Shown: piece by piece, positions 465-10,618 of the stretch
Layout: each line of letters begins with the position of its first letter
How positions within the stretch are numbered: position 1 is the stretch's first letter
Source of the DNA: a virus
Lineage: Duplodnaviria; Heunggongvirae; Uroviricota; Caudoviricetes
Reading direction: 5' to 3' (one strand)
IMG/VR virus record: IMGVR_UViG_3300032167_000073
DNA: 11,390 nucleotides
Made by a program: the position numbers and the translations under genes
Notes under the pieces: generated by a model
Told to the model about the DNA's origin: nothing
The model's input: only the letters and a program-made list of their open reading frames with translations
Databases searched by the model: none

Positions 465-528
465 AAAAATAAATCAGAAAAAGTATTGACAACGGCGTAA
501 GCTGGAGTTACAATCTAACCGTAGTCAA
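465..528 (+). promoter_or_regulatory. Repeat-promoter copy 2
   Basis: TTGACA 486-491, 17 bp, TACAAT 509-514, CTGGAG and AACCGTAGTCAA boxes. Confidence 0.9.
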
Positions 529-566
529 GAAACACCAACACTTAAAGCTTGAAGGGAGTAAAAACC

Positions 567-875
567 ATGACTGAACACATCATTACCGTTGGCCTCTTTG
601 ATAAGGATAGCAAGCGTCAGGAGATCGGCACGCTTGACGCATACAAGGTTATCACGAACATCTTTTGCGGCGCTGGCCTGTGCGCTACGATCCTTGAGGC
701 GCAGGGCGTTTACCGCCACGAAAACGGTGAAGTCGTGGTTGAACCGTCGCTGCGTGTTGAGTGCGCAGGCGCTACGCGCGAACAGATCAAGCCGATCATC
801 ATGCAGATTAAGACGGTTCTTAATCAGGAGTCCGTCATGTATAAGATGGTCGAATCCTCTATCGACTTCCTGTAA
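567..875 (+). CDS. Putative SAM lyase (SAMase)-like / DUF3574-like protein, 102 aa
   Basis: AAGGGAG RBS before ATG 567; motifs G47-x-Y49-R, E59-x-S-L-R-V and Q87-E-S-V resemble the GxY...ExT/S...Q[DE]xV pattern I recall for T3-type SAM lyases; no search run. Confidence 0.55.
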   Translation: MTEHIITVGLFDKDSKRQEIGTLDAYKVITNIFCGAGLCATILEAQGVYRHENGEVVVEPSLRVECAGATREQIKPIIMQIKTVLNQESVMYKMVESSIDFL

Positions 876-941
876 TGCAGATGACGCGCCGCCCATACCG
901 GGCGACGTGTAATGCAGCCGACGGCGGTTCAAAGCCCGCGA
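876..941 (+). ncRNA. Twister self-cleaving ribozyme, circularly permuted (P5-type order)
   Basis: P2 TGCA 876-879/913-916; GA 880-881; pseudoknot TGA 882-884/TCA 929-931; P1 885-894/900-909; U910-A911-A912 cleavage strand; pseudoknot GC 917-918/934-935; P4 GCGG 924-927/CCGC 936-939 closing a T-TCA-AA-GC loop. Confidence 0.85.
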
Positions 942-973
942 TCCTGCTAGATTAAGAAATGGGAGTGTATCAT

Positions 974-1432
974 ATGGCAAGCATTACTAGGGCGCAGCTT
1001 AACAAGTACAATGAAGCGTGCAAGAACGGCTTCATGTTCGATCTGCAGTATTTTCTGACGCATGGCGAAAAGCAGGTGATCCGCATCGTCAAGCAGGCAG
1101 ACGGTTCCCAGCTTCACGCGGTTATCTGGTTCATGCCTGAATACGAGCAGCGCAAAAATGCGTATGGTCAGACGTTTCAGGTGCCTACTGGCCGTCATCA
1201 GCCTGAAGTGCATATTTCCCGTTACGTCGAAAGCCGCATCAATAGCAATATGCTTGTGTCGCATGGCATGGGCAAGTCTATTGTGCTCAATGATCTTGAA
1301 TTGGGCAAGCCCTGCGCCCGTCGCACGTTCTCCACGCTGCAAAAGCTGACGGCGGCGATTAATGACGCATGGATTGAAACGCAGTGGGCAGAAGCGCCCG
1401 CGCGATCCTATGGCGGCGTGATTGTCGGTTGA
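974..1432 (+). CDS. Hypothetical protein, 152 aa
   Basis: GGGAG RBS 961-965 favours ATG 974. Confidence 0.85.
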   Translation: MASITRAQLNKYNEACKNGFMFDLQYFLTHGEKQVIRIVKQADGSQLHAVIWFMPEYEQRKNAYGQTFQVPTGRHQPEVHISRYVESRINSNMLVSHGMGKSIVLNDLELGKPCARRTFSTLQKLTAAINDAWIETQWAEAPARSYGGVIVG

Positions 1433-1446
1433 AGGGAGGGCGCAGC

Positions 1447-1617
1447 ATGAAGGGCAATTGCAAGCGGTACGTCGTCGAATTTGCAGGCGAATTCCTGAAG
1501 AATCCGGCGCTGTCAGATGGCTATAAGGTTGAGATCCGGCGCATTCTTGAGCACTGCAAGCGCGGGCGAATTTCATCCGTTGAAGCCGTCGAATGTATCT
1601 TGAAGCTTGTCAAGTAA
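1447..1617 (+). CDS. Hypothetical protein, 56 aa
   Basis: GGGAGG RBS before ATG 1447. Confidence 0.8.
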   Translation: MKGNCKRYVVEFAGEFLKNPALSDGYKVEIRRILEHCKRGRISSVEAVECILKLVK

Positions 1618-1633
1618 GAGGAGGTAACATATT

Positions 1634-1717
1634 ATGCCTGATATCCTTTGGTTGTTGGCGATCCCGGTTTCCTGCGTGGCGACTTTCAAGCTTCTTGCAT
1701 GGGAACAGACGTTTTAA
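1634..1717 (+). CDS. Small hydrophobic peptide, 27 aa (MPDILWLLAIPVSCVATFKLLAWEQTF)
   Basis: GGAGGT RBS at 1620-1625; fills the gap up to repeat copy 3; below the ORF-track cutoff. Confidence 0.65.
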   Translation: MPDILWLLAIPVSCVATFKLLAWEQTF

Positions 1718-1724
1718 AAATCTG

Positions 1725-1788
1725 AAAAATAATGCAGAAAAACTATTGACAAGGCGGCGGGCTGGAGTTATACTCTAACCATAGTCAA
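1725..1788 (+). promoter_or_regulatory. Repeat-promoter copy 3
   Basis: TTGACA 1746-1751, 17 bp, TATACT 1769-1774, CTGGAG and AACCATAGTCAA boxes. Confidence 0.9.
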
Positions 1789-1822
1789 GGACATCAAACA
1801 GTGAAGCAAGGGAGGCAATCAA

Positions 1823-1996
1823 ATGTATACGCTACACATTATCCCGGTTAGCACCAAAAACCCGCCGCTTTTCGTCAGGCACCATGAACCGACAATTGCC
1901 CATGCAGCAGCCGCCGATTATGCAAAGTTTAGCGACGTGCTGGCCGTAGAGGTTACAAACAACGTAACCGGGGAAATTGAAGCGATTTACGAATAA
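1823..1996 (+). CDS. Hypothetical protein, 57 aa (MYTLHIIP...TGEIEAIYE)
   Basis: GGGAGG RBS, ATG 1823, TAA 1994-1996; not in the ORF track. Confidence 0.8.
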   Translation: MYTLHIIPVSTKNPPLFVRHHEPTIAHAAAADYAKFSDVLAVEVTNNVTGEIEAIYE

Positions 1997-1997
1997 A

Positions 1998-2053
1998 TCC
2001 CGTCTGATGATGGCTGGATGGCCTCCAGCCGAAACGCTGCAAGCGTCACGGGA
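1998..2053 (+). ncRNA. Hammerhead ribozyme, type I
   Basis: Stem I TCCCGT 1998-2003/ACGGGA 2048-2053; CTGATGA 2004-2010; extra T 2011; stem II GGCTGGA 2012-2018/TCCAGCC 2024-2030; GAAA 2031-2034; stem III ACGC 2034-2037/GCGT 2043-2046; GTC cleavage triplet 2045-2047. Confidence 0.9.
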
Positions 2054-2226
2054 AGCCGCCGACGGCACGTAACCGTCGTTAAACCGGGCAGGCAGGCCGA
2101 ACGGCCTGAAGATGAAAGTCGGGCAACCGGGCGGAAAAGAGACAGGTTGAAGCGGGCAAGGAAGCTGCACCCCATGTGATCCGCTGCACGGGCGCGGCAA
2201 ATTCAAAGAAAAGGGGATAACGGGAA

Positions 2227-2538
2227 ATGACTAGAGGGTATCAGGAACGCCGCTATAACATGCAGGCGCGTGAATTTGAGAAGGTTGCCGACTGGACGTT
2301 TACCGTGTATCCCGGCGATAACGAACACTTAACCGTCAGCCGGAACGGAGTCGTGAAAACCGTTCGCGTGGAGGATTGCAGCGAATTCGTTTTCAGTTTG
2401 AAGCGCACAAAAGTGCTTGCGCGTGGCGGCGCGTCCGGCCTCTTTGAATTCATCGACAAAGAGCTGTTCGGGGATGAATTCGCGTGCTTTGCGTGGAAAG
2501 TCCTGCGCCATTGCTTCTTTGATTGCAAGGCGGCTTGA
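2227..2538 (+). CDS. Hypothetical protein, up to 103 aa
   Basis: Co-oriented ORF; start is 2227 or 2260. Confidence 0.7.
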   Translation: MTRGYQERRYNMQAREFEKVADWTFTVYPGDNEHLTVSRNGVVKTVRVEDCSEFVFSLKRTKVLARGGASGLFEFIDKELFGDEFACFAWKVLRHCFFDCKAA

Positions 2539-2587
2539 CGCAGGCGGAACGATGGCCGGAACGATTAACAGAACGGAGGGCGGAACC

Positions 2588-2827
2588 ATGAAGAAGCGGA
2601 AAAGCTATGTTGGTATGAACTTTAAAAAGTGGTGCCAACTTGATCCCGACGATGAACGGAAAATCAATTACACCCTGACAGGCTATTGGGCGTGGGTGTA
2701 CCATGAGGAACATTTTACAAGCGATGACTATTGCGATCCGATGACGATGTTTCGTGTTCAGAATTCGACGATAATGGAAATCAGGCTGGAAAACGACGAA
2801 TGGTTTGTAACCCTGCGTTATAATTAA
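2588..2827 (+). CDS. Hypothetical protein, 79 aa
   Basis: GGAGGG RBS before ATG 2588; ends just before repeat copy 4. Confidence 0.8.
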   Translation: MKKRKSYVGMNFKKWCQLDPDDERKINYTLTGYWAWVYHEEHFTSDDYCDPMTMFRVQNSTIMEIRLENDEWFVTLRYN

Positions 2828-2830
2828 TTT

Positions 2831-2892
2831 AAAAATAAAGCGGAAAAAGTATTGACAAATACAACCGCTGGAGTTATAATAACCTTAGTCAA
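2831..2892 (+). promoter_or_regulatory. Repeat-promoter copy 4
   Basis: TTGACA 2852-2857, 17 bp, TATAAT 2875-2880, CTGGAG, AACCTTAGTCAA (2 bp closer to the -10). Confidence 0.9.
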
Positions 2893-2921
2893 GGAGATAC
2901 AACACTAGGAGGCGGAAAATC

Positions 2922-3182
2922 ATGATCATTGCATCGGAAGTTATGCCGGGGATCGTCTGGAACGTCAATCGCGTATACGACGGAAACGCGCCGGAAGCAA
3001 TCGAGATGGAAACGGAAAACGAATTCATCCGCAGATTTAACCCCGTGGTGCTTTCTAACGGCCTGACCGGAAAAAGCTTCTGCATGGATACATGGATGCC
3101 TACAGGCCGACTGCTGGAAAATATCGTGCCGACGTGGGGCGCGGATGGAACGGGCGTTTATCATGCGCTGATCGTGTACTGA
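2922..3182 (+). CDS. Hypothetical protein, 86 aa
   Basis: AGGAGG RBS; first gene of module 4. Confidence 0.85.
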   Translation: MIIASEVMPGIVWNVNRVYDGNAPEAIEMETENEFIRRFNPVVLSNGLTGKSFCMDTWMPTGRLLENIVPTWGADGTGVYHALIVY

Positions 3183-3203
3183 TGGCGGAACGGAGGAATG
3201 GAA

Positions 3204-3344
3204 GTGGAAAAGCTTTATAAGGGCGTGAAGTACGATCTGAAGCCGGAAGGATATTTCACGATCCGCCTGCCGGATGGCGGATGGACAAAGTTCTTTGGAA
3301 CGGAAACGGATTGCAAGACGTTTATCCGGTTCATGATCAAGTGA
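3204..3344 (+). CDS. Hypothetical protein, ~46 aa (start-EKLYKGVKY...FMIK)
   Basis: GGAGG 3192-3196 suits GTG 3204; ATG 3198 is in frame but too close to the RBS; TGA 3342-3344. Confidence 0.7.
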   Translation: MEKLYKGVKYDLKPEGYFTIRLPDGGWTKFFGTETDCKTFIRFMIK

Positions 3345-3376
3345 TAGACCGTTAGACGGAAGAGGAGGAACAACAC

Positions 3377-3739
3377 ATGAAAATCAAGCTGGATGAGCGT
3401 GTCATTACGCTGGCGGAAGTGCAGCAGGCAAATGAGCTTGCGGCGGAAAGCGATTGGATCGACGTGGATACCATTGAAGGAGTTGTGCGCGGAAACCTTG
3501 GCGGTCATATCATGTTTGATGAGCTGATCGGAACGCCGGAACTGACGGTTACAAAGAACGATTTCCGTCTGACGGTTTGGGTGGAATGTTGGGCGCGGTT
3601 CTTCCGGGATGGAAAGAGCCGGATTGCAAAGGTCAGCGCGGATGTGCTCAAGTGGACGCAGGGCATGGAAAAAGCGGCGTTTATCGTGGAGTATGAGGAG
3701 ACGCGCGACTATATCACAAGCGGAAAGCCGGAGGCTTAA
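3377..3739 (+). CDS. Hypothetical protein, 120 aa
   Basis: GAGGAGG RBS; co-oriented ORF. Confidence 0.85.
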   Translation: MKIKLDERVITLAEVQQANELAAESDWIDVDTIEGVVRGNLGGHIMFDELIGTPELTVTKNDFRLTVWVECWARFFRDGKSRIAKVSADVLKWTQGMEKAAFIVEYEETRDYITSGKPEA

Positions 3740-3741
3740 AG

Positions 3742-3921
3742 ATGGAATTTCTCATTGAGGTTTGCGAGTCCGTGCGCAAGATCGTGCGCGTTGAGGCGGA
3801 GGATGAGCAGGCCGCTTGCGCCAAAGCTGAAGTGATGTATGATAACGGAAAGATCGACATGGAAAAAGATGTGGTCGTGGAAACTGAATTCACATGCAGG
3901 AAGCGCGGAACGGAACTGTAA
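3742..3921 (+). CDS. DpnD/PcfM-like small protein, 59 aa
   Basis: GGAGG RBS 3730-3734; IEVCESVRKIVRVEAEDEQAA...MYDNGKI...EF resembles my recollection of the DpnD/PcfM pattern; not in the ORF track. Confidence 0.6.
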   Translation: MEFLIEVCESVRKIVRVEAEDEQAACAKAEVMYDNGKIDMEKDVVVETEFTCRKRGTEL

Positions 3922-3929
3922 AACTCTTT

Positions 3930-3993
3930 AAAAATAATACAGAATAAGTATTGACAAATGGGATGTCTGGAGTTATAATCTAACCATAGTCAG
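3930..3993 (+). promoter_or_regulatory. Repeat-promoter copy 5
   Basis: TTGACA 3951-3956, 17 bp, TATAAT 3974-3979, CTGGAG, AACCATAGTCAG. Confidence 0.9.
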
Positions 3994-4023
3994 AGACATA
4001 CAATAGTAACGGAGGGCGATCCA

Positions 4024-4263
4024 ATGGAAAAGAAGATGACATATGCTGAATTCATGGAATCGGAAGAATACCGGGGCGCAGGCATCATTGGGCTGTACGA
4101 TTCGGATGGAACGGAAATAGACTGTGATGTGCCGGATGAGGATCTTGCGGAATCGGAAGTTCTGGAAGTGGAAGCGCACGCAGGATATGTAAGCGTCGTC
4201 ATCGACTTTGATGTATCCAAATGTCCGAAAAATAAAGCGGCGTTTGCGGCAGCACGAAAATAA
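4024..4263 (+). CDS. Acidic hypothetical protein, 79 aa
   Basis: GGAGGG RBS; 19 D/E versus 8 K/R. Confidence 0.85.
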   Translation: MEKKMTYAEFMESEEYRGAGIIGLYDSDGTEIDCDVPDEDLAESEVLEVEAHAGYVSVVIDFDVSKCPKNKAAFAAARK

Positions 4264-4279
4264 CAGGGAGGATGATCCA

Positions 4280-4810
4280 ATGGAAAAGCGGATGACGCTG
4301 GCGCAGCTCAAGCGGGATGCAAATTCCGGCTGCTTGGTTCTTGAAATCATGGAACGCTTTGGCGACACGGGCGAGCAGATCCCGGAACGTCTGCGTGGAA
4401 AGCGCCCGGTCACGCGAAGCAATTCTGTCGGCATCTTCCTGCGCAACATGTCCGGCGAGGAAAGCGAGCTGCGATTGGATAACGCGAAGCTGACCGAGTA
4501 CACCGGAGACGAGCTTGTCATTTACAGCGCCGGATACCGTGACGTAACGCCGCAGGAGCAGGCTGTGCTGGATGGTATCAAACGGATCTTAGCAGAGCGT
4601 GCGGATGAGTATAACGGCGGATTCTGGCAAGCTAAACAGTTTGCTATGGAAAGTGATTGCCCGTGGATGTGGGTGTATGGAACCGGGGCGATTAATGGTA
4701 AAAGATACGATCTGTGTAGCGGAAGAGTGCTTGATCATGCCGTGCGCGGAGACGTAGAAATCCGCTATAAGGTGTACAGAAAGGAGCCGCAGAATGGAAA
4801 AGCTGTATAA
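4280..4810 (+). CDS. Hypothetical protein, 176 aa
   Basis: GGGAGG RBS favours ATG 4280. Confidence 0.85.
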   Translation: MEKRMTLAQLKRDANSGCLVLEIMERFGDTGEQIPERLRGKRPVTRSNSVGIFLRNMSGEESELRLDNAKLTEYTGDELVIYSAGYRDVTPQEQAVLDGIKRILAERADEYNGGFWQAKQFAMESDCPWMWVYGTGAINGKRYDLCSGRVLDHAVRGDVEIRYKVYRKEPQNGKAV

Positions 4811-4949
4811 CGTCTATTTCACGGATGCACCGGACGATCCCGTCAAGGTGCGCTGCGCCAATAAGACGCAGGCGCGGGCGGAAGGTCGCCTGTATATCAA
4901 ACAGTGGAACCTGAAAGCAAAGATTGACCGGATTGAGGAGGCCGCTTGA
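4794..4949 (+). CDS. Hypothetical protein, 51 aa (MEKLYNVYF...IEEAA)
   Basis: AAGGAG RBS 4781-4786; overlaps the upstream gene end; not in the ORF track. Confidence 0.75.
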   Translation: MEKLYNVYFTDAPDDPVKVRCANKTQARAEGRLYIKQWNLKAKIDRIEEAA

Positions 4950-4950
4950 T

Positions 4951-5190
4951 ATGGAAAACAAAAAGGAGTTTTACATTGATACGCCCATCGGAAAGCTGCA
5001 TGTGTATGAAAAAGCCGATCCTGACTATCCCGGCATCTTTGTGGATTTGATCAATCCGCAGTTACGCAATGATGATAATATGATCTGCTGCGTGGAATAC
5101 GAACAGCTTATGCAGCGGATTCAGACTGTCACATATAGGCCGGGAGAGGATGAACCCACCGACATCATCATCAATTATGAGGAGGGGTGA
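4951..5190 (+). CDS. Hypothetical protein, 79 aa
   Basis: GAGGAGG RBS before ATG 4951. Confidence 0.85.
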   Translation: MENKKEFYIDTPIGKLHVYEKADPDYPGIFVDLINPQLRNDDNMICCVEYEQLMQRIQTVTYRPGEDEPTDIIINYEEG

Positions 5191-5845: not shown

Positions 5846-6133
5846 ATGGAAATCACAAAGATGCTGACGATCTCCAATGGACACGTGTCCGATGAAACGT
5901 GGCAGAAGCTTGCAAGGGAGGCAAGCGCGGAGTTTGGCGTTGTCCTGCCCATGGCCGTCTACGCAAAGGGCGAGTATGGTTTTCTCATCTCCTGCGCGTG
6001 CATGTATAATGAGGAAAACGAGGGTATCCCCGACGATCTGCTTATGTGCATGAAGCTGGCGCATGAGTGCGGCTGTATGTGGCTTTGTCTGGACGATGAC
6101 GGCGAGCTGCTTTCCTGCCTGCCGCGATATTGA
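5846..6133 (+). CDS. Hypothetical protein, 95 aa, possibly DUF5983-like
   Basis: GGGAGG RBS; IS-x-x-H, GEYGFLI and WLCLDDDG...LP segments resemble a mobile-element family from memory; family call tentative. Confidence 0.75.
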   Translation: MEITKMLTISNGHVSDETWQKLAREASAEFGVVLPMAVYAKGEYGFLISCACMYNEENEGIPDDLLMCMKLAHECGCMWLCLDDDGELLSCLPRY

Positions 6134-9904: not shown

Positions 9905-9928
9905 GGATTGCAGACAGGAGGAAACACC

Positions 9929-10618
9929 ATGGAAGATCGTTGCAGGGATGTGCTTGGCGAGCGCGAGGATCACCCGTCGTATGCGATGATGAGTGTCAGT
10001 AAGATGTCGTCAAACGTCGGCATGCCGCTGTTTGGTTCGTCCATCAAGCACCGCGATACCATCAAGCTCACCATTAAGCGCGGACATGTGCGCCGCAGGC
10101 TCAATCAGGACTGGTATTATGGTAATGAGCGTTTGATCGAAGTGGAGATGTCGTATTCGCAGTTCGCCGAGATCATGACCTCTATGAACGTCGGAGACGG
10201 TATCCCGGTCACGCTCACCTATTTCAAGGGTGAAGGACGCATCCCGGAATGCCCGTTCGTAGATAAGGCGAGCGTGCATCTTGACGAGTTCCGCGAGAGC
10301 CTGAAGAAGACCTACGCCAATACGCAGGCGCTTATTGGGCGCGTGCGGGAGCTTTTCGCGGGTAAAAAGTCCTTTAATAAGGCAGAGCAGCATGAGATCC
10401 TGTGTGCGCTTAATTCCATCAGTGCCGATATCGGCACCAATCAGGATTTTCAGGTGTCGCAGTTTCATGAGCAGATGGAAAAGACTGTCCGCGAGGGTAA
10501 GGGCGAGATTGAGAGCTTCTTCCAGAGCAGGGCGAGCCATTATGCGGCGCATAAGCTTGTCGAGGCGGGCGAAGAGGCTATGCCGGAGCTTCCGCCCGTG
10601 GAAATTGATATGAAATAA
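9929..10618 (+). CDS. Hypothetical protein, 229 aa, longest in the window
   Basis: AGGAGG RBS before ATG 9929; HPSY...LFGS...IEVEMSYSQFAE pattern looks like a phage/plasmid family of unknown function (from memory). Confidence 0.9.
   Translation: MEDRCRDVLGEREDHPSYAMMSVSKMSSNVGMPLFGSSIKHRDTIKLTIKRGHVRRRLNQDWYYGNERLIEVEMSYSQFAEIMTSMNVGDGIPVTLTYFKGEGRIPECPFVDKASVHLDEFRESLKKTYANTQALIGRVRELFAGKKSFNKAEQHEILCALNSISADIGTNQDFQVSQFHEQMEKTVREGKGEIESFFQSRASHYAAHKLVEAGEEAMPELPPVEIDMK

Follow-up and report, generated by a model that had tools for sequence, protein, structure and literature searches.

According to Perreault et al. (2011; PMC3088659), pseudoknots occur in all three types of hammerhead ribozyme, an estimated ~40% of all hammerheads possess one, and some hammerheads flank prophage genes. 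At 0.5 mM Mg2+, a type II example described there lost between 20-fold and more than 100-fold in k_obs when its pseudoknot was disrupted, and compensatory changes restored the rate. For a crystallised PK hammerhead, Zhan et al. (2024; PMC11300833) reported a rate more than 10x that of the extended form. Variation is also on record within the catalytic core. In the (+) hammerhead of CChMVd, one further residue (A10) intervenes between A9 and G10.1 (de la Pena and Flores 2001, relayed in PMC3705267); mutagenesis at this insertion, summarised in the same source, found A to be tolerated, C or G to be harmful and U to increase the rate 3-4 fold. At this point of the core, hammerheads of Penelope-like elements likewise have a conserved base (PMC4209133). 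The biological purpose of self-cleaving ribozymes in bacteria and phages is regarded as largely unexplained (PMC6765202), with one general hypothesis being that their cuts generate pieces of polycistronic RNA that differ in stability or translation (PMC6765202 and PMC3088659).

Here, we analysed an 11,390-nt stretch of DNA from a member of the Caudoviricetes (IMG/VR record IMGVR_UViG_3300032167_000073; hereafter, the window). With a probability of about 0.88, we consider positions 1998-2058 to be a functional type I hammerhead of a subclass common in phages, co-transcribed with a 57-aa gene and predicted to cut between positions 2047 and 2048.

The pseudoknotted hammerheads described in the text of Perreault et al. 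(2011) have the same consensus core as the element and a similarly short stem I. In both, a Watson-Crick pseudoknot with at least 4 pairs stands in for loop-loop contacts and sets stems I and II parallel, and the ribozyme lies intergenically among phage genes that run in one direction, frequently as several copies. Its type I form is a circular permutation of their type II consensus, in which loop I pairs with the tail after stem II. Measured against the text of PMC3088659, nothing essential differs; the window's copy has the optional U, a 7-bp stem II, a 5-nt loop and an unusually long leader of 179 nt. As in the crystallised PK hammerhead (PMC11300833), a pseudoknot helix would stabilise the core; there, however, the pseudoknot replaces helix II and the connectivity is pistol-like, whereas the window's element keeps helix II and its loop would pair with the 3' tail of stem I. 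The ribozymes of CChMVd (+) and Penelope-like elements have one nucleotide inserted at the same core position as the window's, but they come from eukaryotes (type III from a viroid, type I from retroelements) and have loop-loop contacts or minimal forms, and so are not pseudoknotted phage type I hammerheads.

Anatomy of the element at 1998-2058

Searching both strands of the whole window with a loose type I descriptor returned a single site, a complete type I hammerhead at 1998-2058 on the plus strand. Its parts are as follows, with the support for each in brackets; A2 is an alignment of relatives introduced in the next section.

1998-2003, plus strand: 5' strand of stem I, UCCCGU (sequence, minimum free energy (MFE) fold, descriptor)
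2004-2010, plus strand: catalytic core C3 to A9, CUGAUGA (invariant in A2, position 7 excepted)
2011, plus strand: extra U between A9 and G10.1 (sequence)
2012-2018 with 2024-2030, plus strand: stem II, 7 bp, opening with G10.1-C11.1 (fold, descriptor)
2019-2023, plus strand: loop II, UGGCC (fold, descriptor)
2031-2033, plus strand: core G12 A13 A14, GAA (invariant in A2)
2034-2038 with 2042-2046, plus strand: stem III, 5 bp, opening with A15.1-U16.1, that is A2034-U2046 (fold, descriptor, alignment)
Between 2038 and 2042, plus strand: loop of stem III, GCA (fold, descriptor)
2047-2048, plus strand: predicted cleavage site between C17 (2047) and A1.1 (2048) (hammerhead consensus)
2048-2053, plus strand: 3' strand of stem I, ACGGGA, pairing with 1998-2003 over 6 bp (MFE fold, descriptor, alignment of relatives)
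2055-2058, plus strand: pseudoknot tail, GCCG (same-register covariation in relatives)

The junction is closed by G2012-C2030, A2034-U2046 and U2003-A2048, with no mispair adjacent to the core; stem I is open, and stems II and III are capped by loops. Since C17 is position 2047, the cleavage triplet is GUC and the predicted cut falls between 2047 and 2048. The MFE structure of 1995-2060 is exactly this three-stem junction, at -24.5 kcal/mol. Sequence, fold and descriptor thus place the CUGAUGA/GAAA core, the GUC triplet, the predicted cut and the three stems precisely where the preliminary description had put them.

Folded in isolation, the element has a z-score of -1.74. When applied to shuffled windows, the same loose descriptor gave 0.0027 hits per window, a rate that excludes chance as the origin of the motif at 1998-2058. 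In a 201-nt context, the MFE structure kept stems II and III and exchanged stem I for small alternative pairings, a calculation that ignores both the pseudoknot and the order of synthesis and co-transcriptional folding.

Relatives in phage genomes, covariation and model coverage

Scanning IMG/VR for the core with the extra U and a GG...CC stem II yielded at least 117 loci, most of which contain a complete extra-U type I hammerhead by descriptor, amounting to at least 69 distinct sequences with the window's included. From an alignment (A3) of 22 of these IMG/VR phage hammerheads, with the window left out, we built a covariance model (R2). The model matched positions 1998-2061 along its entire length with 69.6 bits (E about 1e-19), as high as its own members, and so upholds the type I identity that had been proposed from the letters of the window. 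No second hammerhead scored above 8.3 bits on either strand of the window (next best R2 match, 8.1 bits). Judging by these R2 scores, the window has exactly one hammerhead, a typical member of the phage subclass. A metagenome scan gave 0 matches to window-like hammerheads, and a blastn search with positions 500-4000 against plasmid and phage collections gave no match.

The preliminary description had also proposed a search with the Rfam hammerhead model, and this came out negative at 1998-2058, even at E ≤ 10. The hammerhead models of Rfam 15 gave no match at gathering threshold, nor at E ≤ 10 for the whole window or for a 96-nt slice of it. (The one genuine Rfam match in the window is the Twister-P5 ribozyme at 876-939; a lncRNA match was dismissed as meaningless.) The same silence extends to the relatives: across 18 phage loci, each with a textbook type I hammerhead, Rfam reported a hammerhead in 0/18, and RF00163, searched directly on three of those records, returned nothing at E ≤ 10. 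RF00163 (Hammerhead_1), the curated type I family with 45 positions and a gathering score of 34 bits, has the same ribozyme class and topology as the window's element, with an open stem I, but scores neither this site nor its clear phage relatives; it detected none of ~20 clear phage type I hammerheads (loci L005-L091). Because these clear relatives are missed too, we read the silence of Rfam on 1998-2058 as a gap in model coverage and do not count it against the hammerhead.

We examined covariation in alignment A2, which comprises 23 sequences, the window's included, that were chosen for having the same loop geometry; one sequence with a 2-nt spacer was excluded. Over the whole structure, 93.6% of cells pair and both sides change in 16/21 pairs, with stems I-III having been imposed by the descriptor when the relatives were collected. 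None of 500 shuffles (0/500) reached the observed pairing or covariation, and sliding the partners by 1-3 columns lowered pairing from 93.6% to 28-48%. Stem II is paired in 99.3% of cells, and its pairs covary.

For loop II, the preliminary description had suggested pairing of 2019-2022 with 2055-2058. The predicted pairs are G2055-C2022, C2056-G2021, C2057-G2020 and G2058-U2019, three Watson-Crick pairs and one U-G, and the helix lies in the register of the family, one spacer base after stem I. Among the matches listed, loop II and tail change together, as in UGGAU/AUCCA, CGACU/AGUCG, UUGCU/AGCAA and UGACU/AGUCA. Within A2, columns 22-26 and 69-73 form the pseudoknot helix, in which 89.6% of cells are paired and 5/5 pairs show changes on both sides. 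Its outermost pair is U-A in 11/23 and U-G in 7/23 sequences, the window's being U-G. The best loop II-tail helix scored 3.74 on average over 67 distinct sequences, unselected, among the matches listed; permuted tails averaged 2.92 +/- 0.08, with 0/2000 permutations reaching 3.74, and the upstream flanks of the same 67 sequences, taken as a control, scored 2.61. Both the covariation in a common register and the permutation test thus back the suggested pairing, and the loop II to 3'-tail pseudoknot of the window's hammerhead is supported as a prediction from sequence, although its 4 pairs, one of them U-G, place it at the short end of the class. Taken together with Perreault et al. (2011), the covariation argues that the window's pseudoknot is real and that the feature was already known.

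To assess the base at 2011, a second scan accepted hammerheads with or without a single inserted base (A, C, G or U) after A9 and retrieved 61 distinct full type I hammerheads from phages, a sample blind to the insertion. There was no insertion in 42/61 and a single base in 19/61, which was U in 19/19 cases. Copies with and without the extra U stand side by side in single phage contigs (for example, L024 and L096). The earlier claim that single-base insertions at this position have natural precedent is therefore borne out, both by these 19 phage hammerheads and by the literature variant (PMC3705267), and the restriction to U in phages fits the viroid mutagenesis.

Several features of the wider collection deserve mention in their own right. 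In one 68-kb phage contig (L118), five copies resembling hammerheads are crowded into 2.3 kb of a single strand (2559-4882, minus strand); this array includes decaying members, with G12 changed to A in one copy and part of CUGAUGA absent from another, and a decayed copy scores 28 bits. In four contigs that look unrelated (L011, L027, L047 and L075), the ~60 nt directly 3' of the hammerhead hold a conserved element, TCGGCAC ... GGGA ... ATCGCCGCC ... TTTTACATATATTGCAC, which is absent from the window and might represent an attachment site or a further RNA. A Twister-sister ribozyme (4894-4973, minus strand; Rfam, 75.6 bits) lies ~1.1 kb from the type I hammerhead of L091 on the same strand, making this contig a further example of differing ribozyme classes clustered in phages.

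Promoter modules and neighbouring genes

All plausible genes of the window lie on the plus strand, and few of them have family matches. The features that bear on the hammerhead, together with the remaining family matches, are the following.

549-875, plus strand: gene at the head of the twister module, with a weak S-adenosylmethionine-lyase-like match (PF23780; E 4e-4, which falls short of the Pfam threshold)
876-939, plus strand: Twister-P5 ribozyme, one promoter module before the hammerhead (RF02684; 41.5 bits, gathering score 37.6)
1746-1774, plus strand: near-consensus sigma-70-type promoter, TTGACA-17 nt-TATACT (11/12 consensus matches), inside a repeated element
1823-1996, plus strand: 57-aa open reading frame (ORF), first gene of its module, with a TAA stop at 1994-1996, 1 nt before stem I
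2227-2538, plus strand: 103-aa ORF, leading the predicted 3' product, its start codon confirmed by homologs
3742-3921, plus strand: gene for a DpnD/PcfM-like protein (family match)
5846-6133, plus strand: gene for a DUF5983 protein (family match)
9908-10618, plus strand: gene matching a PHROG of unknown function (family match)

Near-consensus promoters of the form TTGACA-17-TATAAT occur in a repeat family at 486-514, 1746-1774 and 2852-2880. The repeat spans ~60-110 nt, and further copies lie near 109, 3907, 6642, 8706 and 10792. These repeats divide the window into co-directional modules. The module starting at 1746 consists of the promoter, the 57-aa gene, the hammerhead, the 179-nt leader, the 103-aa gene, one more gene and then the next promoter. 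Its promoter lies 224 nt 5' of the hammerhead, which is intergenic and on the coding strand, with the stop codon at 1994-1996 and stem I from 1998, the usual placement in the subclass. In the preceding module, the Twister-P5 ribozyme follows the first gene directly, with no base between it and the TAA stop at 873-875; judging by its weak family match, that gene may be an anti-restriction gene.

Among the matches listed, the next start codon mostly follows the hammerhead by 20-50 nt; the window's is farther away, at 173 nt from stem I. Folding of the leader (2054-2226) revealed no notable structured RNA (z-score +1.15), no terminator was called at the hammerhead, and its hairpins are not followed by a U-tract.

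Homologs of the 103-aa gene were found in five IMG/VR contigs at 53-60% identity. These contigs have no other gene in common with the window. No hammerhead precedes any of the homologs, from which it follows that the 103-aa gene does not need the ribozyme. In the one contig inspected (L119), the homolog sits directly behind a promoter repeat of the window's type (3900-3960). Along with the lack of a hammerhead or other common genes around the homologs, this arrangement points to genes, promoters and ribozymes being shuffled separately. The genome contig collection contained no relatives of the 103-aa gene or of the 236-aa protein, the IMG/VR viral contigs none of orf157 or the 57-aa ORF, and the latter had no Pfam or PHROG match.

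Predicted cleavage products and possible roles

According to the mechanism that we propose, the promoter at 1746-1774 would transcribe the ribozyme together with the 57-aa gene (1823-1996). The pseudoknot, of 4-5 bp in the subclass, would hold stems I and II parallel, and once the tail has been made (to 2058), the RNA is predicted to fold and to cleave itself at the bond joining C2047 to A2048. The 5' product, ~270 nt long, would contain a single gene and terminate in stems II and III, bearing a 2',3'-cyclic phosphate, while the 3' product would start with a 5'-hydroxyl and comprise the 179-nt leader, the 103-aa gene (2227-2538) and the gene after it. The cut would uncouple the stability or translation of the 57-aa gene from that of the genes behind it. 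We hold to this uncoupling with moderate confidence, and the likely role of the hammerhead is to split the transcript of its module.

Two observations on the relatives bear on what else the cut might do. Among the matches listed, a hammerhead starts 0-5 nt after the stop of a same-strand ORF in 38/69 relatives (55%), as compared to 5% of random positions. Also among the matches listed, the first 6 nt of the predicted 3' product can pair (at least 4 pairs) with the next 16 nt in 28/49 relatives of the pseudoknot class, against 3.7 expected and a maximum of 9 in 1000 trials when tails were taken from sequences with a different stem I. The partner is a copy of the 5' strand of stem I right after the pseudoknot tail (for example, in L020, L001, L043 and L088), which suggests that a post-cleavage hairpin may sequester the new 5' end in these relatives. 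In the window, the corresponding hairpin is weak, formed by 2048-2051 with 2073-2076, that is 4 bp at +26 and outside the usual +8 to +14. Given the few pairs and the atypical distance, we do not claim a post-cleavage hairpin for this copy.

Both observations would suit an active ribozyme whose main purpose is regulation or RNA-end chemistry rather than simple splitting, a reading we consider distinctly unlikely. In its regulatory form, ribosomes terminating 1 nt 5' of stem I would cover that stem and thereby gate cleavage; in its end-chemistry form, the 5'-OH and cyclic-phosphate ends would be handled by RNA end-healing or sealing enzymes of the phage itself. The stop codon flush against stem I, here and in over half of the listed relatives, is consistent with such gating, as is the like placement of the twister at 876 after a stop, and the excess of re-pairing suggests refolding by design after the cut. 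Tight spacing may, however, merely reflect the compactness of phage genomes, and the window's own post-cleavage hairpin is weak.

Very unlikely, in our estimate, is that the element descends from hammerheads but cleaves slowly or not at all, as the leftover of a mobile spacer that contained a ribozyme, and that it now has no role. The decayed copies in the L118 array would accord with such a history, as would the short pseudoknot of the window with its wobble pair and the 103-aa homologs that manage without a ribozyme. Yet the window's copy has retained every core position, both pairs that close the junction and all three stems; its R2 score is at the level of the model's members, compared with the 28 bits of the decayed L118 copy; and the outer U-G pair is common among the relatives (7/23). 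Finally, a chance match to the consensus, or a cluster of DNA or terminator hairpins without ribozyme meaning, is effectively refuted: Rfam's lack of a hammerhead report and the isolated fold z-score of only -1.74 would be in line with it, but the descriptor frequency in shuffled windows, the class-model E-value of about 1e-19, the match to a family with covarying stems and pseudoknot, and the missing U-tract and terminator call all stand against it.

The preferred reading, a functional hammerhead that splits its transcript, has good support, and it makes the window's element an ordinary representative of a class already described, in which the extra U and the pseudoknot are both known and recurrent. 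By itself, the site changes little, adding one more well-formed hammerhead to the thousands known. Its value lies in being a clean example and in the results obtained at the level of the family, namely the Rfam gap, the U-only insertion, the abutment to stop codons and the re-pairing of the 3' product. As for the first of these, annotation pipelines relying on the curated Rfam type I model will overlook an abundant phage subclass.

Beyond the single site, the twister (876) and the hammerhead (1998) in successive modules might be interchangeable, translation-sensitive insulators: a ribosome at the end of the first gene would shield stem I and delay the cut, the products would then refold, their 5'-OH and cyclic-phosphate ends would give the first gene and those behind it differing lifetimes, and end-healing or ligase enzymes of the phage might act on those ends. 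We regard this scheme as unlikely. Two neighbouring modules, each with a promoter, a first gene and a ribozyme of a different class, would offer a compact test system.
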